Source: Escherichia coli
Lineage (GTDB): Bacteria; Pseudomonadota; Gammaproteobacteria; Enterobacterales; Enterobacteriaceae
Reading direction: 5' to 3' (one strand)
DNA length: 64,000 bases
Assembly (NCBI RefSeq): GCF_041886205.1
Contig: NZ_CP169029.1
In this document: piece by piece, positions 2,433 through 47,370 of the stretch
How the letters are laid out: each line of letters starts with the position of its first letter
How positions within the stretch are numbered: the first letter of the stretch is position 1
Notes under the pieces: model-generated
Databases searched by the model: none
What the model saw: only the letters and a program-made list of their open reading frames with translations
Told to the model about the DNA's origin: nothing
Made by a program: the position numbers and the translations under genes

Positions 2433-3559
<1,127 letters not shown>

Positions 3560-15069: not shown

Positions 15070-15242
15070 AAAGTTCTTTGACGTTGCATTGCTGGCGTAA
15101 ATGTCAGCAATGCAGCATTTCCTCACGATTCTCCTTTGACGATCGCACTTTTTGCTCGTTATGATGGCGTCGCTAGCCTCAGTAAATCCTTACTCCGGCG
15201 GTGCGCAACCCGTGCGCGTGAACCACTATCTGAATGCTCATC

Positions 15243-34430: not shown

Positions 34431-35519
34431 TCACGGCAGGCGGTGGCGGGCTTGATAATAAGCCTGCCAGTGAGCTTCTTTATGTGTGGCGACTCGCTGT
34501 TCGAAGTAACGGCGCAGACGAGCGCGATCTTCTTCGTTATCTTTGACGATGGTTCCGGCAATACAGTCCACCAGATCGGCTGGCTCACCTGCGCGATTCG
34601 CTAAAAACCAGGCGCGGACGCCCACAGCGTGGGCCACGTTCACGGCTTCAGCGGTGGACATAATCGCTGTTAGTGTATCCATTGACGTTTTCTTTTCGCC
34701 GTTGGCACGCAGATCGCGGAAGGTGCGGACCAGTAACTCCAGTACCGCGTCAGGCACTTTATGCGGAATACCGCTATGGGCCAGCAAACGCGCCGAAGCA
34801 CTGGCGACCAGTTCCAGCTCCTGAGCGAAATCCATAATCGGAAAGACAGTTTCAAAATCGAAGCGACGCTTTAGCGCAGCACTCATCTCATTGACGCCGC
34901 GATCGCGCGTATTGGCAGTGGCAATAATATTAAAGCCTTCCCGCGCATAGAGTTGACTGGCTTCACCAGTGAGTTCCGGCACCGTCATCACCCTGTCAGA
35001 AAGCATACCTAACAGACAGTCTTGCACTTCCAGCGGTGTACGCGTTATCTCTTCAAAACGGACGATTTTGCCGTCGCGCATTCCCTGGTAAAGCGGGGCA
35101 GGGACCAGCGCTTCCGTTGATGGACCATGATTGATAAGCAGAGCGTAGTTCCAGCCGTACTTGATTTGATCTTCAGTGGTAAATGCGCCGCCCTGGATGG
35201 TTAACCCGGCATCGCCGCTAATAGCGGTTGCCAGTAATTCAGACAGGAGAGATTTTGCGGTGCCCGGTTCCCCCACCAACATCAAACCGCGCCCGGTGGC
35301 AAGAGTGACTAACATACGTTCGACAGCAGAGGGACTAATCACGACTTTACGGCTAATATTTTGCGCGCTATCGCCAAGGATAAAAGCACGTGCCGCAGGC
35401 AAACTTAACTGCCAACCGGGCGGGCAAGGTGCGTTATCATTTTGTTTTAATTTTGCCAGTTCATCGGCGTATAACACAGCGGCAGGCGGACGCTGCAGAT
35501 GATTATTCTGCGGTGACAT
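34431..35519 (-). CDS. yehL: MoxR-like AAA+ ATPase YehL, 362 aa
   Basis: Walker A GEPGTAKS in LMLVGEPGTAKSLLSELLA; start set at MSPQNNHL. Confidence 0.88.
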   Translation of the reverse strand: MSPQNNHLQRPPAAVLYADELAKLKQNDNAPCPPGWQLSLPAARAFILGDSAQNISRKVVISPSAVERMLVTLATGRGLMLVGEPGTAKSLLSELLATAISGDAGLTIQGGAFTTEDQIKYGWNYALLINHGPSTEALVPAPLYQGMRDGKIVRFEEITRTPLEVQDCLLGMLSDRVMTVPELTGEASQLYAREGFNIIATANTRDRGVNEMSAALKRRFDFETVFPIMDFAQELELVASASARLLAHSGIPHKVPDAVLELLVRTFRDLRANGEKKTSMDTLTAIMSTAEAVNVAHAVGVRAWFLANRAGEPADLVDCIAGTIVKDNEEDRARLRRYFEQRVATHKEAHWQAYYQARHRLP

Positions 35520-35626
35520 ATATTCATCCCTGAAATGTATTAATGAAATAAACGATATTTTACGCGCAATAAATGTTTGGCGCATTAGTTGTTTGAGCGA
35601 AAAATATCTGGAAAGCAGATCACAGT

Positions 35627-35656
35627 AAATAAAAAAACCTGCTGGTGAGGCAGGTT
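35627..35656 (-). terminator. intrinsic terminator downstream of yehK, upstream of yehL
   Basis: Reverse strand reads aacctgc-ctcacca-gcaggtt followed by tttttttatt. Confidence 0.55.
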
Positions 35657-35825
35657 CTTTTATTTACTATTTTCAGGCCTAACACCACAGCCTGTGCAAC
35701 ATCGTGTTCCAACGAACGAATTATAACCACGGCTGGACCCCGTTGCAATTAAGATAATGAGATTTATAATCCAGACCGTTGGGACGTTGCGCCGGATCGG
35801 ACCAATTTGAATTATTTAGAGTATA

Positions 35826-36143
35826 TTATTCTATTTCTTGGTTGAATATATTCTGTAGTTCACGATTAAAAATTGCTATTACAGTTTCAGGTGATTCACC
35901 TCGTAATTTCCGCTCATCAATACACTCATCTCTTATATAAATCAACGCATCATTTATTAGCGGGTCAGCATCTTCTCGATCACGTTGATGAAATGTTGGA
36001 TGTAGCCGGAATCGCTCCAGTCGATAGACGGAACCTGTAAATAATTCAGAGCATTTATGGATCTCAAGTCTGAAGGAAAACGGATCTTCAGGTACAGGGA
36101 CCTCATAATCGTAAATAGCAACCAGCTCTTTTTGCACGATCAT
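35826..36143 (-). CDS. yehK: small uncharacterised protein YehK, 105 aa
   Basis: 105-aa ORF 59 bp downstream of yehI; synteny with K-12 yehK. Confidence 0.75.
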   Translation of the reverse strand: MIVQKELVAIYDYEVPVPEDPFSFRLEIHKCSELFTGSVYRLERFRLHPTFHQRDREDADPLINDALIYIRDECIDERKLRGESPETVIAIFNRELQNIFNQEIE

Positions 36144-36202
36144 CGCTTTCCCGTTGGTAAGTCGTGTTGAAAACGGGCAGTCGCATCACTGCCCGTTGTG
36201 TT

Positions 36203-39200
36203 TTAATGGAAAATGACGTCGGGTGCGCTTAACGCCTCACTCAAATCAAACACATCAAGTGCGGCAAAAGTGACGGATTTATTGTCACGGTACACCCGAA
36301 GAGAACGGAAGCTCATCAGCGCTTTGCTATCAGCACTGTAGTAGTTAAAACCGGGTGAAAACTTAAGGACCAGCCGGTACTCACCTAAGTCATAGACAAA
36401 TGCGTCCTCATAGCCTGACTCCCAGCCTTTGTATCGCATTCCCATAAGCTGCCCAACGGTAGCGGATTTACCTTCCCAGCGAGTCAGGCTGTTACTGGTT
36501 GACTCGTCAGGTGTGAGCAGCACCGTGCGGCGCGACAACTGGCGAAAAGGCGGCATAATTTCGTAATCGGCAAAAAGCTGTGCAAATTCACTGCGCATTT
36601 CTGCTGTCATTTCTAACGGGTGGGCAATGCCAATCAGAGCGTCCGCAGGCAGGTCAATGGGCTCATCTTGTGCATTGCAGAATTCCCCCTCTGCGGCCAC
36701 ACGAAAGGTGTTGAGTAAACGACGTGGTTCATTTGCCGGATAAACCCCCCATATTAATCGCTGGGTAACCAGGCGGGTAAAGGGATGATTAACAAAAAGA
36801 GAATGAAAATCTGCCAGCGACCAGCGTCGGGTGGTGCGTAGGGCAGTTTCAAGACGCGGGAGCAGGTTTTTGCTCACCTGAGTGGCATCTTTTTTTAGCC
36901 CTTTTAGTCGGGCCAGTGCCTCGGGCGCTTTCAGTTGATCGTCATCGGCGCGCAACCGGGGAACACTTTTCTGGCGAACGTTTTGTTGATCGTAGATAAC
37001 CGGGTTGAGGTTTTCATCGAAGCGAACGGTAAACTGCCGGGGACCAAAATCAAAAATCAACGCCTGCGGATCATCAAGACCCAGTGTTGGGACTAATCTG
37101 TCCGCTAACTCTTCCTGGCTTAGCCCGCGATTTTCTGCGACCACCTGAAGAAATTCCGCTGCGTTTTCACGTAATGAAGAGGATTTCGCCCGTTGTGATA
37201 CATGATGCAGCTGTATCAGCGCCATATCATTATTCATCAGGGTGAGTATATTCAGACCACTGACAGCACGGGCAGATTTGCCTTCTTGTGGCCAAGCGAG
37301 GATCTGTGTTGTTAGATCCCGTGCCGTGCTTTCGTCACCAAAGAGACTTAACGCCAGAAATGCCCAGTTGTCTTTTGCGGGGGCACCAGCTTGTTGCCAT
37401 GCGGTGAAGAGATCCCAGGCAAAAGCTGCCAGCGTTTGCGGCTGGCAGAACGTTTTCAGTTGTTCCAGCCCGCTATAAAAACGTCCCCCTTGGGTAAAGC
37501 GCAGCATTTCGCCAATAATTTCCAGAGCGTCATCGGTAACAGGTTGATTATTAGTGATAAGGCGCGGCCTGGACCACATTTGCGGATGCCAGAAATCAGG
37601 GGCTTTTGGAATGCGTGCCGGGTAAATCTCTATTGGACTCTGTTTAAGTAATTGTTCCAGGGCAGGCCATACATCAGCGCGATCCCAGCGGTTTGCCACG
37701 GTTTGTAGTAATACGCCATGTCCCTGTTCGTAAAGTAAACGCAGGGCAAGTAATGCAGCTTCGCTATTATCGCTGGATTTAGTGAAGACAAGAGGGATAA
37801 GTGCAGTAGCCGTATGTTCCGGCCATTGTAAAATCCACTGGCGAGCCAGATCACGCTGCGCCGCGAAACGTCGCCAGACGCGGGCAACAGGCAGCGCCAG
37901 TTCTGTTGCGCCGAAATGAATCAGCAGCGGAAATATCTCTTGTGGATGTCGGGCAAAGGCGGTGTTTAATCCAGGCAAAGCATCGGTAGCCAGCACACTT
38001 AACAGATATTCCACCCCAGTGTAATGAAAATCAGCATCGACAATTTGTTGCCAGCACGATACCGCCATTTCGCGCGGCATCTGCGCGATAAGGTACAGAT
38101 TCCAAATCCCCCAACGCTTTTCATTACCATAGTAAAATTCGTGCTGAAAAGTTCGCCACCCTTCCATCAACGCAATGCAATCTTGTGCCAGTAATGCTTT
38201 GGTGGCTTCTTCACGATACTGTTTAGATTTGGCCTGATGCGCGTGATAAGTACGCAATAGTCCTATTGATGTGTATTCTTGCAGTTGCTGAGCATCAAAG
38301 GCATCCAACTGTCCATTAAGAAGATGCTTATTAAATTCCAGGCTATGAACGTCAAAACCTAATTCCCGCAAGAAGGTATCCGCCCCTCTCTTAGCAATAC
38401 GTTCGTCAAAAGACATGGCGCTAAAATGGTCAATTGCAGTTTGCTGTTCCGGCGTCCAGTGTTTATTCGGCGACCTGTACGTTTGCGGTGCAAGCGTAAG
38501 ATCAGGCAGCGAAAAGTGAGGTATGGAAGTCTTTTTCTTCCTCCCACGCCATGGTGGTGAAACGAGGATTTCAGGCATTTGGCTGTTATCGGTACTATCA
38601 ATAACCGGTTTGGGCGGTGCCAATAAATAACTATTCAGTACTGCCCGGGCTTGAGTACTTAACCACTGCATCACCTCTTCTGCCAGTTGTGGCTGCGATG
38701 CCATCAGCGTTTGTAACAGCGTACGCCAGTATTCATCTCGAGCTTTTTGCTGGGCAGGCAGCTTTTTGTCTTCGATGATTGGATAACCAGGGCGGGCTGG
38801 TGGTTCTTTTAACGCCAACAGTTCTGCCAGTGCCGCGAGCGTCGCGTGGGGGAAGTTTTTACTGTATTTAGCCACACGTTGCAGGCTGGGTTTGTTTTTA
38901 TCAGCCACCAGTAGCAAGGTGCGGATGACCTGCGGATGGTTAATTTGTACCAACAGACTGCCGCAATCTTCTTTATGGGCATACATCGCGAGGCGCGGAA
39001 TGGCTGCCAGTCCTTGTTCGCGCAAAAGGGCGGCGCAGGCCGCGTAGCCGAAGTGGTTTTCATGCGACATGTAGCTGGCTTCGCGATCGCTAAATATATC
39101 CTGACTCCAGTAGTGATCGAGTTTCCTCACCGCTGTGGGGTCATTAGCAACAACTTTTAGCCACTCCTTAGAATGATAATGAGTCCGTGGGCATTCAAGG

Positions 39201-39850
39201 CCTATCAACTCATTGGCGATTTCTGGTTTTTCCGGGAGGATCAGCGCAATAAAAGGGCGGCGAACTTTGGTTATTCCTGGCAGTGCGGCAATGAGTTTGT
39301 CGGCGCAACGCTGCCAGCAGCTTTCCTCTGCCAGAGAGAGATGCTTACGCAGTCGGAGATCGAATTCGTTATAGGTTTCTGATCGATAACCATAGCCATA
39401 GTCCTCGTTCTGATACTGCAATGTCACTACCAGAGGATCACTCTCATAACACCGCGCAATAAACTGGCGTGCAATCACCACCTCAGTCGCATATTCCAGT
39501 CCCTCTTGTTGGACGATTTCGTCGAGCAACTGTTGGCTGTCATTTTGCGCGATACAGGCTAGTGCCGCCATTGTGCGGGCCGGGACTGAGGGTTTGTGTT
39601 CGCCGATCAAGTTGATGGCCTGCGTAATGGCGGACTGCCACTCCAGTGAAAAATTTTCATAACGCCAGACAATGTTTTTTTTCTTCTCAGCTTTTTGTAG
39701 CAATTCATCACCCAGTGTCTGAATGATGCTTTCAGTGATAACAGGCACCGGTTCGCCCGGCCATTTGCGATGACTGAGTGGTGTTTTGCCTTTTTTATAT
39801 TTCAGTTCCAGTTGGGCGTTATCCGCCAGCCACGGTAATTCCTTGTCCAT
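36203..39850 (-). CDS. yehI: giant DUF4132-family protein YehI (MolR paralogue lacking the WGR head), 1215 aa
   Basis: 1215-aa ORF; C-terminal two-thirds alignable by eye to both molR-like genes (e.g. FDFGPRQFTVRFDENLNPV, FAQLFADYEIMPPFRQL). Confidence 0.85.
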   Translation of the reverse strand: MDKELPWLADNAQLELKYKKGKTPLSHRKWPGEPVPVITESIIQTLGDELLQKAEKKKNIVWRYENFSLEWQSAITQAINLIGEHKPSVPARTMAALACIAQNDSQQLLDEIVQQEGLEYATEVVIARQFIARCYESDPLVVTLQYQNEDYGYGYRSETYNEFDLRLRKHLSLAEESCWQRCADKLIAALPGITKVRRPFIALILPEKPEIANELIGLECPRTHYHSKEWLKVVANDPTAVRKLDHYWSQDIFSDREASYMSHENHFGYAACAALLREQGLAAIPRLAMYAHKEDCGSLLVQINHPQVIRTLLLVADKNKPSLQRVAKYSKNFPHATLAALAELLALKEPPARPGYPIIEDKKLPAQQKARDEYWRTLLQTLMASQPQLAEEVMQWLSTQARAVLNSYLLAPPKPVIDSTDNSQMPEILVSPPWRGRKKKTSIPHFSLPDLTLAPQTYRSPNKHWTPEQQTAIDHFSAMSFDERIAKRGADTFLRELGFDVHSLEFNKHLLNGQLDAFDAQQLQEYTSIGLLRTYHAHQAKSKQYREEATKALLAQDCIALMEGWRTFQHEFYYGNEKRWGIWNLYLIAQMPREMAVSCWQQIVDADFHYTGVEYLLSVLATDALPGLNTAFARHPQEIFPLLIHFGATELALPVARVWRRFAAQRDLARQWILQWPEHTATALIPLVFTKSSDNSEAALLALRLLYEQGHGVLLQTVANRWDRADVWPALEQLLKQSPIEIYPARIPKAPDFWHPQMWSRPRLITNNQPVTDDALEIIGEMLRFTQGGRFYSGLEQLKTFCQPQTLAAFAWDLFTAWQQAGAPAKDNWAFLALSLFGDESTARDLTTQILAWPQEGKSARAVSGLNILTLMNNDMALIQLHHVSQRAKSSSLRENAAEFLQVVAENRGLSQEELADRLVPTLGLDDPQALIFDFGPRQFTVRFDENLNPVIYDQQNVRQKSVPRLRADDDQLKAPEALARLKGLKKDATQVSKNLLPRLETALRTTRRWSLADFHSLFVNHPFTRLVTQRLIWGVYPANEPRRLLNTFRVAAEGEFCNAQDEPIDLPADALIGIAHPLEMTAEMRSEFAQLFADYEIMPPFRQLSRRTVLLTPDESTSNSLTRWEGKSATVGQLMGMRYKGWESGYEDAFVYDLGEYRLVLKFSPGFNYYSADSKALMSFRSLRVYRDNKSVTFAALDVFDLSEALSAPDVIFH

Positions 39851-39859
39851 GCTCTTTCC

Positions 39860-42800
39860 TTATTCAAACAGGGCTTCAATATCGTTAATTAGCTCGCTGG
39901 CGGTGATGGCATCGAGTACGGAGAACTGCGCTTCCTGTGTTGAATTACTCCCCCAGCCATAGCTTTCCGCTTTGCCTTCCCATAACCACAGCTTGCTTAA
40001 GAGCTGCTCAGCGCTAAGTTCGGCTGGTGACATACCCACCGCAAAACCTTCGTCGATTTCCATGATTAACGACCAGCGACCCAAAGGTTTGATCATCCAT
40101 CCGATCCAGCCTCCATCCTGTGGTTCGCCCTTTATCCAGCCTTTATTCGCCAGCCCCATGACCCGACCACTCGGGCATTTTCTGCCTGCCCAGCGGGTCA
40201 GTTCACTGGCATTGCGCTCGGCTTCTGTCAGGGCGTAGCTGTTACGGTCGAGCTGGCGGAACGGTGGTAGCAGTTCGTAGTCGGCAAAAAGCTGACCAAA
40301 GGCGGCAGCATCCGTTGGTGATATTTCCAGAACGTGAGGAGTGCCGATAGAGATATCGCCTTCCGGCAGGGTGAAAAGATCATCGTCAGCGGTGCTGTAG
40401 CTGTTATCTTCTGCTACGCGAAAGCAAGCCAGTAGCTGGTTTTCGGCGCTATAAACGCCCCAAATCAGACGGCGGGTTAAGTGACGAACCAGCGGATGCT
40501 CAACCAGGAAGAGCTGGAAGTTTTCCAGCGACCAGCGGCGGCGCAGGCACATGGCGGATTCCAGCCTTGCTACCTGCTGGGCGGCGACGGTACGCGCATC
40601 TTTTTTCAGCAGTTTGTAGCGGTTAACAGCATCGTTCGCCTGTGATTCATCATCGCTTTTGTTTGGTTTGGGCAGGTCTTTCAGACGGCTGCCGGAAGCG
40701 TCACGCACAAACGGTTTTAAGGTTTCATCAAAGCTGACGGTGAACTGGCGTGGGCCGAAATCCAGCAGCAACGAACCGTTATCATCCAGACCGAGATCTG
40801 GTGCTAACCGATCTTCAAGCTCCGCCACCGTGAGTTCGCGGCTCTCGGCAATATCGGCAATTTTCTCTTTTGCCCGCTCCTGTAAAGCTTTGAATTTCAG
40901 TTTCTGAGCAATGCCGTTAAGCTGCATCAGAGCAATATCACTACCGATAGCGGCGAGGATATCAAGCCCGACGGTGGCGCGTTTATGCTGGGATTCGCCA
41001 GGCCAGGCGCGGATTAATGGCGTCAGTTTGCGGGCGGTGTCATCGTTACCGAGAACGCCTAACGCAGTGAACGCCCAACTCTCTTTCGACGGCGCGCCAG
41101 CGGTCTGCCAGGCGGTAAACAGATCCCAGGCAAATTCAGCCAGTGAGTCGGCGGTACAGGCGTCTTTCACCTGTAATATTCCCGGATACAGAACCTCTTC
41201 CTGAGGGAAGCGGAGCATTTCACCGAGGTGGAGGAGGGCTCTATCTGGCAGTGATTGGGCGTTTGCTTTTAATACCGGGCGCGTCCAGAGCGATGGTTGA
41301 TAAAAGGCCGGAAGAGTGGGGATTTTTGTCGGGTGATTATCTAAGGGATCGAGCGCAAGCAGAGCGTTCACCGCATCGGTTACTTCCGGCTGGTTATAAC
41401 GTCGGGCGATTTCTTGCAGTAATGGCTGATGACCGTTTTCGGTAAGCATACGCAAGGCAGCGCGGGCGTTATCCTGTGCTTCACCGGCTTTGCCGAGCGC
41501 CGCAGGCAGCAGGCCGGTAAGGGCATGTTCCGGGTATTTCAACAGCCAGCTACGGGCGTTTTCGCGTAGCGTTTTGAGTTTGTTGAAGGCACGGGCAATC
41601 AGTGGCGCTAATTCGATAGCCGCAAAATATTGTGCTACAGGCAGCGCTTCTTGCGGATAGCGAGATGCTGAGTGGATAAAACCTGTTAAACCAGCAAGTC
41701 GAAGATGCAACATTACTTGTGTTGCACCTGTATGTGGTTCTTTACTAAGGATGTTCCACATCTCGATAGCTTTATTAATGGGTAAAACATGGAGTGAAGA
41801 AAGATTCCATTCGCCCTGATAAGGGGAGTTATAGGACTTAAAAGCATCAATCAGCGCTGAATAATCTTCACGCTGCAAGGCATCCAGTGCTATTTCTGGA
41901 ACATCAATATAGCCTCTATGTTTGTTCCAATCCCAGCGGTTGAATCCCAGGGAGGTCAGAAAAGCTTTTTCTCCCTCAGCTTGCTGATGAGGTTGCCAGT
42001 TATGCTGCACTTGCAGTGTTTTGCTTTTTGTTTCATTTATTGTACAGAAGGATTCTAGGGATAATGGTGCTAAATCCAGCACCGAAATCGTCGATTTTTT
42101 CTTTTTAGCCAGCCAGGGCGGTGAGACTAATACGGCAGGCAGCATATCAGCGTTCGCATAAACTGAAGGTTGTGTCAGTTGTTGCTGGCATGACTTAAGA
42201 ACGGTAACTGCCGGGGCAGATAGCCAGGAGATTACCCGTTCTGCTAATGTTGGTTGTGAGATAAGCATTGTCATTAGCATCATGCGCCAGCGCTTTTCAT
42301 CTTTTTTTGCCAGAAGTTCTGCTAATGCCGCCAGCGCTGCATGTGGAAAGCGAACGAAAGCCTTTGTCATGCGATCGTGGCAACGCTTTCCCTGCTCGCT
42401 TGCATGGATAAGTAGTGTAAGTGCCTGCGGGTGGTTGATATGCATCAACACTTCACCACATGTGTCACCAGCAGCGTAAGGAGCAAAACGGGCCAGCGCA
42501 GCGACACCTTGCTCCTTGAGTATCGTTGCGCACCAGATTTTACCTCCGTAATAATCATCAAATACCTGCCCAGGCTGTCCTGGATAGTATTTTCCCAGTT
42601 CTGCCAATACCTGCTCGTCAGCGGCCGTCAGTTTTAGCCATTCCAGCGCATATAACCCTTTTTGTCCGCAAAGATGTCTGGCAATCTCATGAGCTATTTC
42701 TGGTTTTTCCGGCAACAATAGTGCAACCAGCGGCTGGTGCCAGGTGGGCATGTTTCCGAGAGCGGCAATCAGTTTGTCGGCGCAGCGCTGCCATACATCG

Positions 42801-43618
42801 TCATTTGCAAGTGAGAGATGCTTACGCAGGCGCATTTCAACCGAAGCGAAGCGTAACAGATAGCCAGGCTGCCTGTTATCCGGGGTAACCGTAATGAGAT
42901 GGGCATCATAATCCCAGTCGAAGCGGATGAATTGCAATGCAATGACAACCTCAGTGGCATATTCCAGACCACCTTCCTGGACAATTTGATCCATTAACTC
43001 TTCATGATCGTTACGATTGAAGCCTTGTTCCAGCGCAACCAGTACCGCCAGTACCATCGGAGGTAGCGTGGTGCTAATTGGCGAGTCGATAAGGCCTACT
43101 GCTTGTGTAATTGCCTGCTGCCAGTCGAGTGAACAGGTACTGTAATCGAAGGTGAGCACCTTTTTAAAACGCCGGTGAGTATTCGCGGCAACGGTGCGTA
43201 GCAGGGTTAATTCATCCTCCTGCTGCACCGGATCGCCAGGCCAGCGTCGATGACTGAGTGTGGTTGGCGCAATCTCTGTCGGTAACATGATTTGGGCACC
43301 GTCTGCCAGCCAGGGGAGGAGGTCACCAGCAAATGCTGGTTTGTCTTGTGGCAAAGGGGTAATTTCAGGGCATTCAATAACCTGGCCGGGTGCAAATGTC
43401 GCTGTCATCACGGATACTTCTTCTACGTAGCCCTTTTTTGTTTTCTCCGCAATCAGCTTCAGCTCCGCTTTTTCCGCCGCCGCAGCATCTGCAAAGCTTT
43501 TTACCTGACTTTGCCCGTTACTGCCGACTTTACCCCAGTTAATATGCAGCTCGTTTCCCTGCTGCTCCACCGCCCAGAATTTATGTGATTTTTCGTCCTG
43601 ATAAATATAGGTTTTCAT
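39860..43618 (-). CDS. molR: intact MolR/YehH-family protein, N-terminal WGR domain plus DUF4132, 1252 aa
   Basis: N-terminus MKTYIYQDEKSHKFWAVEQQGNELHINWGKVGSNGQSQVKSF is a WGR-domain signature; uninterrupted 1252-aa frame; 9-bp gap to yehI. Confidence 0.8.
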   Translation of the reverse strand: MKTYIYQDEKSHKFWAVEQQGNELHINWGKVGSNGQSQVKSFADAAAAEKAELKLIAEKTKKGYVEEVSVMTATFAPGQVIECPEITPLPQDKPAFAGDLLPWLADGAQIMLPTEIAPTTLSHRRWPGDPVQQEDELTLLRTVAANTHRRFKKVLTFDYSTCSLDWQQAITQAVGLIDSPISTTLPPMVLAVLVALEQGFNRNDHEELMDQIVQEGGLEYATEVVIALQFIRFDWDYDAHLITVTPDNRQPGYLLRFASVEMRLRKHLSLANDDVWQRCADKLIAALGNMPTWHQPLVALLLPEKPEIAHEIARHLCGQKGLYALEWLKLTAADEQVLAELGKYYPGQPGQVFDDYYGGKIWCATILKEQGVAALARFAPYAAGDTCGEVLMHINHPQALTLLIHASEQGKRCHDRMTKAFVRFPHAALAALAELLAKKDEKRWRMMLMTMLISQPTLAERVISWLSAPAVTVLKSCQQQLTQPSVYANADMLPAVLVSPPWLAKKKKSTISVLDLAPLSLESFCTINETKSKTLQVQHNWQPHQQAEGEKAFLTSLGFNRWDWNKHRGYIDVPEIALDALQREDYSALIDAFKSYNSPYQGEWNLSSLHVLPINKAIEMWNILSKEPHTGATQVMLHLRLAGLTGFIHSASRYPQEALPVAQYFAAIELAPLIARAFNKLKTLRENARSWLLKYPEHALTGLLPAALGKAGEAQDNARAALRMLTENGHQPLLQEIARRYNQPEVTDAVNALLALDPLDNHPTKIPTLPAFYQPSLWTRPVLKANAQSLPDRALLHLGEMLRFPQEEVLYPGILQVKDACTADSLAEFAWDLFTAWQTAGAPSKESWAFTALGVLGNDDTARKLTPLIRAWPGESQHKRATVGLDILAAIGSDIALMQLNGIAQKLKFKALQERAKEKIADIAESRELTVAELEDRLAPDLGLDDNGSLLLDFGPRQFTVSFDETLKPFVRDASGSRLKDLPKPNKSDDESQANDAVNRYKLLKKDARTVAAQQVARLESAMCLRRRWSLENFQLFLVEHPLVRHLTRRLIWGVYSAENQLLACFRVAEDNSYSTADDDLFTLPEGDISIGTPHVLEISPTDAAAFGQLFADYELLPPFRQLDRNSYALTEAERNASELTRWAGRKCPSGRVMGLANKGWIKGEPQDGGWIGWMIKPLGRWSLIMEIDEGFAVGMSPAELSAEQLLSKLWLWEGKAESYGWGSNSTQEAQFSVLDAITASELINDIEALFE

Positions 43619-43630
43619 TGCTAAATCCTT

Positions 43631-46600
43631 TTAATCAAACAGTGATTCAATATCGTTAATCAGCTCGCTGGCGGTGATGTCGTCGAGCACGGAGAAGGGA
43701 TAAACCGATTTGCGCGGCGTCAGTTTGCACAACTGAATGTGCTCAATTTTTTGGCTATCGCTGATTTCGGTGACGGGCAATCCAACGCAGAAGCCTGGTG
43801 TCACACTCAGTTCGACGTAGCCATCATCCACAGATTTATAAAATGAGTAATAGCCGCCACCATCCAGCACATCGCCCCGTTGCCAGCCTTTATTCATCAG
43901 CCCGGCGACGCGCCCACTCGCTGCCTGGCGACCAGCCCAGCGCTGCAAATCGCTGCTGCTTTTTTCTGTCTCAGAGAGCTGAGACCAGGGGCGATCAAGT
44001 TGACTGAATGGTGGCAATAGTTCGTAGTCAGAGAACAGTTGTGCAAATTCAGCAGCCTGCGGGGCCGGGATTTCCAGTACATGCGGGATACCGATACTGC
44101 CCTGCGCAAGGGTTAACGGGTTATCCTGACCGTCGCTAAAACTGCCATCCTCCGCCACGCGGAAACAGGAAATAAGCTGATTATCAGCGTCATAAATGCC
44201 CCACATCAGACGTTGGGTGATATGACGAACCAGGGGATGCTCAACCAGAAACAGGCGGAACTGTTCTGCAGTCCAGCGGCGACGCTGACACATGGCGGCT
44301 TCCAGACGCGAAATCTGTTGTGCAGCTACCGTGCGGACATCTTTTTTCAACAACTTGTAGCGATTTACCGCTTCCTCAGCCAGCGTTTCATCATCGCTTT
44401 TGTTCGGTTTGGGCAGATCTTTCAGACGGTTGCCGGAAGCTTCGCGCACAAACGGTTTTAAGGATTCATCAAAGCTGACGGTGAACAGGCGTGGGCCGAA
44501 ATCCAGCAGTAGTGAGCCGTTATCATCCAGACCGAGATCGGGGGCTAACCGGTCTTCCATCTCTGCGACGGTGAGCTGGCGGCTTTCGGCAATCTGGGCG
44601 ATTTTAGTTCTAGCCTGATCCTGCAAGGCTTTAAATTTTAGCTTTTGCGCAATACCGTTAAGTTGCATCAGGGCGATATCGCTGCCGATAGCAGCAAGAA
44701 TATCCAGCCCGACAGTGGCGCGTTTATGCTGAGATTCCCCCGGCCATGCGCGGATGAGCGGGGTGAGTTTGCGGGCGGTGTCATCGTTACCCAGAATCCC
44801 CAGTGCGGTAAATGCCCAGTTATCTTTGGCTGACCCGCTTGCAATCTCCCAGCTCAAGAAGAGATCCCAGGCGAAATCGGCAAGAGACTGCGGGGTACAG
44901 GCCTCGATTACCTGTGTTATCCCCGGGTAAAGGGTGGCTTCGCGGGGAAAAGAGAGCATGGTGCACAGTTGCAGGATAGCTGAATCCGGAAGTGCCTTGC
45001 CGTTACTGCGCAGAAGCGGGCGGTGCCATACTTCAGGGGTACACCAGGCGGGGAGTTTAGCGATTTTCTGCGGAAAATTATCGAGGGGGTCGCTGTTAAG
45101 AACATCTAACAAACCCGTAAGCACTTCTGCCTGATTATAGCGGTGGGCAATTTCTTCCATTAACGGCTGATGCCCATGATGAGCCAGATAGCGAATTGCC
45201 GTAGCGGCGTCTTCACGCTCACTACCTGCTTTTCCCAGCACGGAAGGCAGCAGGCCCGTAATGGCATGTTCCGGATAGGTTAACAACCAACGTTCAGCAA
45301 CATCACGTACAGATTTAAGCTGACGAAAGGCGCGAGCCATTAAGGGGGCTACTTCGGTTGCGCCAAAACGTGCCGCTAAAGGAATGGCTTCCTGAGGTAC
45401 GACTAAGGCGCGACGCAGCAAGCCGGGCAATGTCGGAAGACCGTAATATTCCACTACTTCACATGCGTTAATCAGATGTAGGTGAGTCAGTGCGTTCCAT
45501 ATTTTCAGTGCTTTATTTTCTGATAACTGAAGCAATACCGACACATTGACAAGGATATGACTTGCCCACCGAGGTTTATCCCAGATCTTTAATAAAGCTT
45601 CGTAATTGTCCTGCTCGAAAAAATCAATGGCAGCCTGAGGTATACCCCAACCAAGCTCTTCGCAATGGAAGTTCAACAAATCCAGGATATCTTTCGCTGA
45701 TGGGGATGGCGCAGATGGCTCAGTCAGATTTTTTGTTGCGGGGATAGATTCAGGGGGGGAAGAGGTAATACCCGGAGAGTGAGGTTGATACCAGCAATCT
45801 TTTTCTTTTTTTCCAACCATGAAGGGGCGATCAATATACTGGGTAATTCATTCTTATGAGCAATTTTTTCGATGGACATAAGCTGAGGAAAATAACTAAA
45901 TAAAATTTGTTGCTGTTTTTCGTCAAGCCAGGGAAGCGTTTTATGTAAGGCTTGCGCATTACCCAAGATGATGCGCTGCAGTAAACGATAATAGTGAGAG
46001 TTATTTGTGTAATTTAAGGCTTTTGTTAATGCATAAAGTGCAGCTTCAGGATGTAAATTTGTTGCGTGTTCCACTTCACTGATACATTCTTCTTTTATTA
46101 ATATATTAATGGCGTCAGGATGATTAACTTGTGTAATTAGATTTTTAACTGAATAACTATCCTTTATCCATGGCTGAAGAAGTGGAAGAGCTTTTACCCC
46201 TCGTTCACGCAGTAATGTCGCAGTGCATTTTTCCGCCGTCTGCCAGTCGTTATAGCGCTTAAGTTGGTTAAGATTCATCAATTCATTGAGTGCCTGCGGA
46301 TCTGTGGCAACGATATCCAACCATTCCATTTCTGGGTAATTAGCACATTGCACTAAGTCAAAGACAATTTGATTAGCAATTTCAGGTTGTTCAGGCAAAA
46401 GAAAACCTATTAAAGGGCGTTTACGTGGAGACAGGGAAGGCAACGCTTGAGTAAGCTTTTTCATGCACCGTTGCCATGTTTTTTCATCAATACGCGAGAG
46501 ATGATTTCGCAAGTGAAAATCTACAGTGCTGAAGCCGAATTCAAAACGTTGTTCTGATATTGTGTTACTTAGAATAAGCGTTGGTACGCAATTTTTTGTA

Positions 46601-47370
46601 AAAAAATTGTATCCCATGCGAACATACAAAAGGCATTTATCTAAAGCTTCACAATTTCCCGGATCTTGATTTTGATCATCTGATATCTGAATTTGCTGTA
46701 ATAGCAAGACTAATTCGGTCGCGTATTCTACCCCATGCTGTTGCGCCAGATAATCAAAAAGATCATTAGCGCTATCGCTATCTTGCATAAGAAACTTGAC
46801 CAGCAAAAAGAATGCATTGGAGAAAATCGAACCGTCTATATTTTTCTGCTGAACGCGCATGATTGCTTCATCCCGGCCTCGTTGCCATTCCGGGCGGCAG
46901 TCACTCACATCAAAATGCTGTAATTGTGCAAGAAAATAGTATTCCTCATATTTGTTTTCCCATAAGAGTGACCATAACGAGATATCTTTAGCAAACGTCC
47001 TGACACTGTCGGCTGGGAATTTCCTACTGCTAAATACTCTCTTTGTTTCGAGAATGATTGGTTCAAGGTCCGCAATCCACGGTGGTGTGTCGACATCAGT
47101 AATAATTGGATGTTGTTCGCTATCATCAGCTGTGGTGGGAACAGTTATCAGCATGTTTATATCGTCAGTCGATTTTACATACCCCTTCTTCACCTTCTCC
47201 GCAATCAACTTCAGCTCCGCTTTTTCCGCCGTTGCAGCATCCGCAAAACTTTTTACCTGGCTTTGCCCTTGGGTGCCAACTTTTCCCCAACTGATATGCA
47301 ACTCGTTTCCCTGTTGCTCCACCGCCCAGAATTTATGTGATTTTTCGTCCTGATAGATAAAGCGTCTCAT
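43631..47370 (-). pseudogene. molR: second MolR-family paralogue split by a frameshift near 45727-45745 (WGR-containing 548-aa N-terminal ORF plus 729-aa C-terminal ORF)
   Basis: ORFs 45724..47370 and 43631..45820 overlap by 97 nt in different frames; joined they parallel the intact paralogue along its whole length; N-terminus MRRFIYQDEKSHKFWAVEQQGNELHISWGKVGTQGQSQVKSF. Confidence 0.7.

Follow-up and report, generated by a model that had tools for sequence, protein, structure and literature searches.

An intrinsic terminator between yehK and yehL of Escherichia coli very probably belongs to orzP, an orphan antitoxin RNA gene

Introduction

The hairpin and uridine run that lie between yehK and yehL in the Escherichia coli genome studied here are very probably the Rho-independent terminator of orzP, a gene for a small antitoxin RNA that carries its own sigma-70 promoter and has lost its toxin partner. 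The window, that is, the whole stretch of 64,000 nucleotides that was analyzed, holds the yeh genes on its minus strand, in the order yehI (36203-39850), yehK and yehL, followed by yehM, yehP and yehQ. A first-pass annotation of the sequence had described a hairpin followed by seven T at 35627-35656 on the reverse strand, had read it as a boundary between two transcription units, and had noted a 105-residue open reading frame, yehK, as a possible adaptor or regulator. Both the hairpin and the yehK reading frame are present as described; their interpretation is the subject of this work.

The sequence of events that best accounts for the region would be the following. RNA polymerase would start near 35712, co-directionally with the yeh genes, and stop at the U-run, generating OrzP. 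A 396-bp deletion between two 9-nt near-repeats took out the pairing site along with an ERIC element, the zor terminator and the zorP open reading frame, leaving the antitoxin gene, both divergent promoters and approximately 30 nt of the zor leader, which is the ‘orz-only’ allele of K-12. OrzP is consequently an orphan RNA here, with no zorP mRNA to pair with, and its terminator would, as a side effect, halt transcription arriving from yehI/yehK ahead of yehL. The orphan-antitoxin state has already been described for OrzPmg of E. coli K-12 (PMC11264685), and the element is thus not of a new kind; ‘antitoxin,’ as applied to the OrzP of the window, denotes ancestry rather than a demonstrated role. 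The features discussed below are collected in Table 1.

Table 1. Predicted and observed features of the yehK-yehL region in the window, and of the corresponding toxin-bearing locus of an O157-like genome (L002)
Feature	Coordinates	Strand	Basis or remark
yehL, MoxR-type AAA+ ATPase, first gene of yehLMPQ	34431..35519	-	AAA_5 match, E 1e-34
orzP intrinsic terminator (probable)	35627..35656	-	G+C-rich stem, U7 then AUUU; fold energy; Term-seq 3' end
OrzP sRNA, ~80 nt	35631..35712	-	RF02083 match, ACG V1 triplet, 122-nt identity; 5' end placed near 35712 from the -10 position and the reach of complementarity to zorP
OrzP 5' pairing region, complementary to the zorP 5' UTR where the toxin is kept	35693..35712	-	
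orzP promoter (predicted)	35720..35748	-	-35 TTGCAA (35748-35743), 17-nt spacer, -10 TATAAT (35725-35720)
Remnant zor promoter (predicted), TTGCAA-16-TATAAT	35743..35770	+	divergent from orzP; consensus scan and hexamer check
zor 5' UTR remnant, ~27-35 nt, ending at the junction	35777..35811	+	start approximate, placed from the -10 position
Junction of the deletion, with a single near-repeat copy, TTCAAATTG (9 nt, as read on the yeh strand)	35803..35811	.	alignment
yehK, 105 aa	35826..36143	-	real, fast-evolving; at this position confined to Escherichia/Shigella
10-bp hairpin within the 59 nt that separate the stop of yehI (36203) from the start of yehK (36143)	36172..36197	.	terminator-like on both strands
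orzP of L002	2647-2572		
zorP of L002	2893-2982		MDSLTQKL...
orzO of L002	3256-3183		
zorO of L002	3502-3591		MDTLTQKL...

The terminator

On the minus strand, the hairpin is built of a 5' arm, AACCTGC (35656-35650), a 7-nt loop, CTCACCA (35649-35643), and a 3' arm, GCAGGTT (35642-35636), and runs into the seven T at 35637-35631; the end initially placed at 35627 includes the subsequent ATTT. A 7-bp stem with four G-C pairs, a 7-nt loop and a U7 tract are the features of a Rho-independent terminator, and the RNA of 35662-35625 is predicted to fold with -15.0 kcal/mol, versus -3.2 +/- 1.9 kcal/mol for 200 shuffled sequences (z = -6.2), none of which folds as well. As a near-palindrome with an A-run on its opposite side, the hairpin was returned by the consensus scan in the plus-strand form alone (35636-35656).

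Term-seq had been proposed by the first-pass annotation as a means to check the site, and published data for MG1655, whose sequence here is identical to that of the window and whose positions can therefore be carried over, agree with termination at the U-run. The reported 3' end at 2204485 (+) corresponds to window position 35630, the first base past the U-run (PMC7815308 Supplementary file 1), and its flank reads ...AACCTGCCTCACCAGCAGGTTTTTTT up to the end, followed by A (PMC7815308). Intrinsic termination thus does occur at the hairpin. Another 3' end, at 2204446 (window 35669, minus strand), lies within the A/U-rich linker of OrzP and may be a processing product; of the two ends, it alone has an entry in the Rho column, which reads ‘No’ (PMC7815308). 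Both ends, 2204485 and 2204446, were classed as ‘orphan,’ i.e., unassigned to yehK (PMC7815308).

The distances to the flanking genes also stand as first given. The last U precedes the annotated ATG of yehL (35519) by 111 nt, the initial estimate having been about 110 bp, and the hairpin is indeed located downstream of yehK, starting 169 nt past its stop codon, with the qualification that a complete promoter is found in between.

The OrzP gene

The transcript that ends at this terminator matches the Rfam family RF02083 (OrzO-P) at 35706-35631 on the minus strand, with 99.9 bits versus a gathering score of 60 (E 6e-17), over model positions 1-76 of 76. The V1 triplet, which separates OrzP (ACG) from OrzO (GAA) (PMC3919570), assigns it to the former type: the window reads UUGGAAC-ACG-AUGUUGCACA, and the second copy of the O157-like locus has GAA. 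The predicted promoter agrees with the sigma-70 consensus at 10 of 12 positions in a consensus scan, and its hexamers, TTGCAA and TATAAT, are those of the orz promoter of EDL933 as well (PMC11264685 Table 3). Promoter and sRNA gene together, a stretch of 122 nt, display zero mismatches to K-12 and to the O157-like orzP. It is of note that the RefSeq annotation lists neither orz nor zor in any genome examined, MG1655 included.

These observations bear on the simplest reading of the hairpin, namely that it is the plain terminator of a yehI-yehK unit, marking an operon boundary without any separate gene. Downstream of yehK on that strand, no strong terminator-like element precedes it and, with the zor terminator that neighbors yehK deleted in the window allele (see below), yehK read-through probably ends here. 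Such a reading, however, is at odds with the near-consensus promoter in the 169 nt that follow the yehK stop codon and with the full-length sRNA match; the Term-seq class, moreover, is ‘orphan’ rather than yehK primary 3' end (PMC7815308), and the sequence is identical to that of a validated sRNA, OrzPmg, whose northern signal in MG1655 disappears in a deletion mutant that lacks its own promoter and first 34 nt (PMC11264685). The plain-boundary interpretation is thus scarcely tenable, and the hairpin is best considered as the end of the OrzP gene.

The gene has also surfaced, under another label, in a study of DA1, a D2O-adapted derivative of MG1655, in which a T>C change at 2204449 (window 35666, minus strand) falls inside OrzP (PMC6881287). 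The change was labeled just ‘yehK/yehL intergenic’ (PMC6881287) and may be a hitch-hiker of mutagenesis. Elsewhere in the window, and unrelated to the hairpin, two further Rfam matches exceed their gathering scores on the plus strand: a Peptidase-S11 RNA motif at 15158-15238 (72.8 bits) and a TPP riboswitch at 59212-59308 (71.2 bits).

Loss of the toxin

In E. coli O157:H7, zor/orz loci, which are type I toxin-antitoxin pairs, consist of an Orz sRNA of approximately 80 nt and, divergent from it, a gene for a 29-aa toxin, and Orz pairs via its 5' 18-19 nt with the 174-nt 5' UTR of the toxin mRNA (PMC3919570). OrzO represses the toxicity of zorO (PMC3919570), and this repression requires RNase III and proceeds without Hfq (PMC3919570; PMC5397157). 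IstR-1/tisB and OhsC/shoB are of the same class as the ancestral locus, with a divergent sRNA that pairs over approximately 18-21 nt with the toxin 5' UTR (PMC3919570); their sequences, however, are unrelated, and those loci retain their toxins, antitoxin-only shoB/ohsC strains being very rare, with two reported (PMC11264685).

The same region was compared in four genomes: an O157-like strain (L002, PNUSAE008406), CFT073 (L003) and two of K-12 (L004 and L005). The O157-like genome has a yehL-yehK spacer of 1240 bp with both OrzP/ZorP and OrzO/ZorO genes (Table 1), CFT073 has one zor/orz pair, and K-12 has a 306-bp spacer, the same as in the window. The zor toxin reading frame is present in five of the loci collected (L002, L003, L006, L008 and L010). 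Set against the full zorP/orzP locus of the O157-like genome, the sRNA of the window is identical to the copy of orzP nearest yehL, and the intergenic site and the divergent promoter pair are shared, whereas the 29-aa toxin reading frame, the 5' UTR pairing site and the toxin terminator are missing, so that only the antitoxin half is left.

A Zor-like reading frame, which a zor-orz toxin-antitoxin system would contain, was sought among all open reading frames of at least 20 aa in 35450-36260 and by a regular-expression scan, and none was found. Of the 20 nt at window positions 35694-35713, 19 match the zorP mRNA strand at positions 2801-2820 of the O157-like locus; this counterpart lies within the deleted segment, and the Orz target site of the zor 5' UTR (18-19 nt) is absent from the window. 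With both the toxin reading frame and the OrzP pairing site missing, the locus of the window is an antitoxin gene without a toxin. What is retained of the toxin side is as described for other strains: orz-only loci keep the zor -35 and -10 elements (PMC11264685 Table 3) together with 27-29 nt of the zor UTR (PMC11264685). The closest comparison is OrzPmg of MG1655 (PMC11264685), which shares with the window the 122-nt identity, the 111 nt to yehL, the junction, the zor promoter and the short zor leader remnant, and differs from it in strain background only, the flanks being 99.3% identical.

The nature of the loss can be read from alignments with complete loci, in which homology breaks at 35811 and resumes beside yehK. 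An assembly labeled E. fergusonii (L010) has both near-repeats, TTCAAATTG beside yehK and TTGAAATTG in the zor leader, and between them an ERIC-like element, the zor terminator and the zor reading frame. When the 396 bp from TTCAAATTG to TTGAAATTG are deleted from this locus in silico, the window allele is obtained, apart from SNPs and one 1-nt indel. The segment at 3340-3440 of this assembly, between yehK and the zor terminator, is a full ERIC-like repeat, 41 of its 44 core positions fitting the consensus; the O157-like and CFT073 loci have just the end of this repeat, next to yehK.

The frequency of the junction was determined with a 60-mer that spans it, at least 80% of its length having to be covered, in 5426 complete E. 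coli genomes. The junction is present in 1840 of these (34%); some match to the 60-mer occurs in 1846 genomes, 1803 of which reach an identity of 99% or more. This looks like a single deletion event that later became common. The frequency is close to an earlier figure of approximately 30% ‘orz-only’ genomes in E. coli, MG1655 among them (PMC11264685).

Beyond E. coli, orz was found between yehK and yehL in all Escherichia-labeled assemblies examined, namely those of E. albertii, E. marmotae, E. whittamii (with two copies) and two further species; a check for the Zor reading frame was positive in E. albertii and in E. marmotae. The locus is thus widespread in Escherichia, which is broader than the 2014 statement that zor/orz occurs in E. 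coli and Shigella only (PMC3919570), and the toxin-less state is derived. Additional variation was seen in the spacer itself: several E. coli genomes have an IS1A inserted within the yehK-yehL region, with yehK annotated twice, and orz varies in copy number, with up to four orz places per genome. With IS1A, ERIC and the varying zor/orz copy number, the spacer has the appearance of a hot spot of small mobile elements. Further along, yehM has an internal stop in the O157-like genome PNUSAE008406 (L002 1-1361).

Does the orphan RNA have a function of its own?

The persistence of orzP in the absence of its partner evokes the question of a function of its own, either through new targets in trans or as an anti-addiction element that would neutralize incoming zorP-bearing DNA. 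OrzP is expressed in MG1655 and, promoter included, is highly conserved among orz-only strains (PMC11264685), and the allele is common, being present in 34% of genomes. This conservation could nonetheless stem from the recent single origin of the allele, with its one junction, rather than from selection; the seven mismatches to the O157-like locus all fall outside orz, with none in its 122 nt, and this distribution reaches P ~0.05 only. No target is known, and a search of the 64-kb window for another OrzP target site with at most three mismatches returned the gene itself only. An independent role for the orphan RNA is therefore unlikely, albeit worth bearing in mind.

Transcription between yehI and yehL

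The terminator also has consequences for its neighbors. The notion that yehI/yehK and yehLMPQ form separate transcription units is reasonable; the cause of the separation is to be sought in an inserted sRNA gene, rather than in a plain operon boundary as originally suggested. Since the zor terminator beside yehK is deleted in the window allele, transcripts that read through from yehK should carry OrzP in their 3' UTR and would end at the OrzP terminator.

Outgroups provide a view of the arrangement elsewhere. An Intestinirhabdus-like contig (L023 5966-6001) has a WGR-DUF4132 gene 34 nt from yehL, and Erwinia rhapontici (L024 5971-6001) has one 29 nt from yehL; each of these two loci contains a single WGR-DUF4132 gene and neither yehK nor orz. 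The 29-34 nt spacing implies a five-gene operon of WGR-DUF4132, MoxR, DUF5682, vWA and SWIM genes, and yehK together with zor/orz is thus an insertion, specific to Escherichia, that split five genes which are tightly linked elsewhere. PADLOC yielded zero matches to defense models among the Yeh proteins and the proteins of the outgroup five-gene operon. In the window, two overlapping minus-strand reading frames at 43631-45820 (729 aa) and 45724-47370 (548 aa) match the C-terminal and N-terminal halves, respectively, of the WGR-DUF4132 paralogue at 39860-43618, and look like a third or fourth full-length paralogue that has been split in two.

Such an insertion leads to a further reading of the terminator, according to which the orz promoter and terminator now double as promoter and leader (attenuator) for yehLMPQ, yehL being expressed by read-through of the OrzP terminator. 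The operon-like outgroup spacing of 29-34 nt, in two loci, is consistent with it, and so are the lack of a minus-strand promoter-like site in the 111 nt between terminator and yehL in the consensus scan and the perfect conservation of orz and its promoter whether or not a strain keeps the toxin. The 3' end, moreover, is included in the list of Adams et al. of ends within 200 nt upstream of an open reading frame (PMC7815308), and yehL is transcribed in vitro by purified RNA polymerase (PMC3141248). Against this stand the strength of the terminator (U7, -15 kcal/mol), the crudeness of the promoter scan, a consensus test to which weak or non-sigma-70 promoters would be invisible, and the scores of known leader families, which are far below threshold. 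The last point also disposes of an amino-acid operon leader as a candidate: Thr_leader reaches 26.2 bits versus 55, Trp_leader 22.3 versus 41 and Phe_leader 19-20 versus 55, scores that are driven by the terminator shape.

All in all, a role as leader of yehLMPQ is improbable. If it were true, the insertion of yehK and zor/orz in the Escherichia ancestor would have severed yehL from its ancestral upstream gene, and read-through of the OrzP terminator, possibly regulated, would express the downstream MoxR-vWA-SWIM operon; this would account for the retention of orz where the toxin is gone, and would amount to the domestication of an orphan type I antitoxin as a cis-regulatory element.

On the opposite strand, the remnant zor promoter is intact and, after the deletion, points into yehK in antisense orientation, with no terminator before the hairpin at 36172-36197. 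Antisense transcription from the yehI-yehL spacer of MG1655 has been observed on an in vitro run-off array (PMC3141248). The hairpin at 36172-36197 is predicted to fold with -18.1 kcal/mol on the minus strand (z -4.9) and with -17.2 kcal/mol on the plus strand, its tail on the yeh strand being just 4 U long. MG1655 Term-seq data report no 3' end at this hairpin, either in the sense or in the yehK-antisense orientation, and a stable yehK-antisense RNA ending there was dismissed for lack of an antisense 3' end in these data.

YehK: a fast-evolving neighbor

YehK yields no match to Pfam, NCBIfam or PADLOC models. The gene evolves under purifying selection, with dN/dS values of 0.16-0.22 between species, versus 0.03-0.05 for yehL, its indels are in frame, and the AF2 model of the protein has a pLDDT of 90.6. 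The strand opposite yehK encodes no Zor, which rules out the possibility that yehK is an artefact of an antisense toxin gene. Wherever a source names the organism, the close homologues of full length, with identities of at least 68%, come from Escherichia or Shigella. In CFT073, yehK is annotated as frameshifted (L003 3092-3408), and many truncated forms exist; the gene is thus dispensable.

A wider family was revealed by a profile search of 1.84 billion representatives, which recovered 52 relatives, many of approximately 100 aa, at 25-48% identity and with the motif FRLE-x-F-G-x-VYRLE-x-YRL-x-PTFPQ...DDAL-x-YV-x-D. A scan of genome contigs with a narrower YehK alignment found three loci, all in Escherichia. 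Two proteins of unusual architecture were encountered: P0075, a metagenomic protein of 2094 aa with 28 separate matches to the YehK profile and no Pfam domain, may represent either a repeat protein or an artefact of assembly, and P0080 (219 aa) is a tandem double YehK domain.

The contexts of distant relatives were inspected on six metagenomic or assembly contigs, four of which place the relative beside polymorphic-toxin or immunity genes. One relative closes a series of small genes that follows an Rhs toxin gene, one lies downstream of an Ntox16 toxin gene, one adjoins Imm53 and DUF6794 (with identical gene order on two contigs), and one adjoins DUF4265, a neighbor of uncertain meaning. Two further contigs with distant relatives were too short for their context to be read. 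None of the six carries a gene of the DUF4132 or MoxR type.

These contexts weigh on the question, raised by the first-pass annotation, of an adaptor or regulatory role for YehK, which would consist in a functional link between the DUF4132 paralogues and YehLMPQ. The conserved position of yehK between the two gene sets across Escherichia species and the purifying selection that acts on it would be in keeping with such a role. Orthologous clusters in Erwinia, in Burkholderia and on the Intestinirhabdus-like contig, however, lack the gene; its distant relatives occur at the end of an Rhs array or with Imm53, Ntox16 and DUF4265, and never with DUF4132 or MoxR; and the frameshift in CFT073 and the common truncated forms likewise speak against it. 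The proposal hence finds no support, and an adaptor function is very improbable.

The same neighborhoods permit a tentative suggestion, short of a probable one, that YehK is an orphan immunity-like protein, the comparison class being the immunity proteins of polymorphic toxins, such as Imm53 or TriX, that of the Xenorhabdus Rhs toxin TreX. This suggestion is one of context: YehK matches no described Imm family in Pfam, NCBIfam or PADLOC, 31 members of its own family likewise give nothing beyond noise, and polymorphic-toxin or immunity neighbors of yehK are absent in Escherichia. The placement of YehK within a wider, unnamed family of small proteins, with a tendency to lie in toxin/immunity islands, nevertheless provides a testable lead for an unannotated gene.

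Concluding remarks

The yehK-yehL spacer holds a small RNA gene, expressed in MG1655, that is missing from RefSeq/PGAP annotation, and the hairpin between the two genes is not understandable without it. Orphan type I antitoxins are a recently recognized oddity; to their description the present comparison adds that the toxin-less allele has a single microhomology junction, common to a third of complete E. coli genomes.
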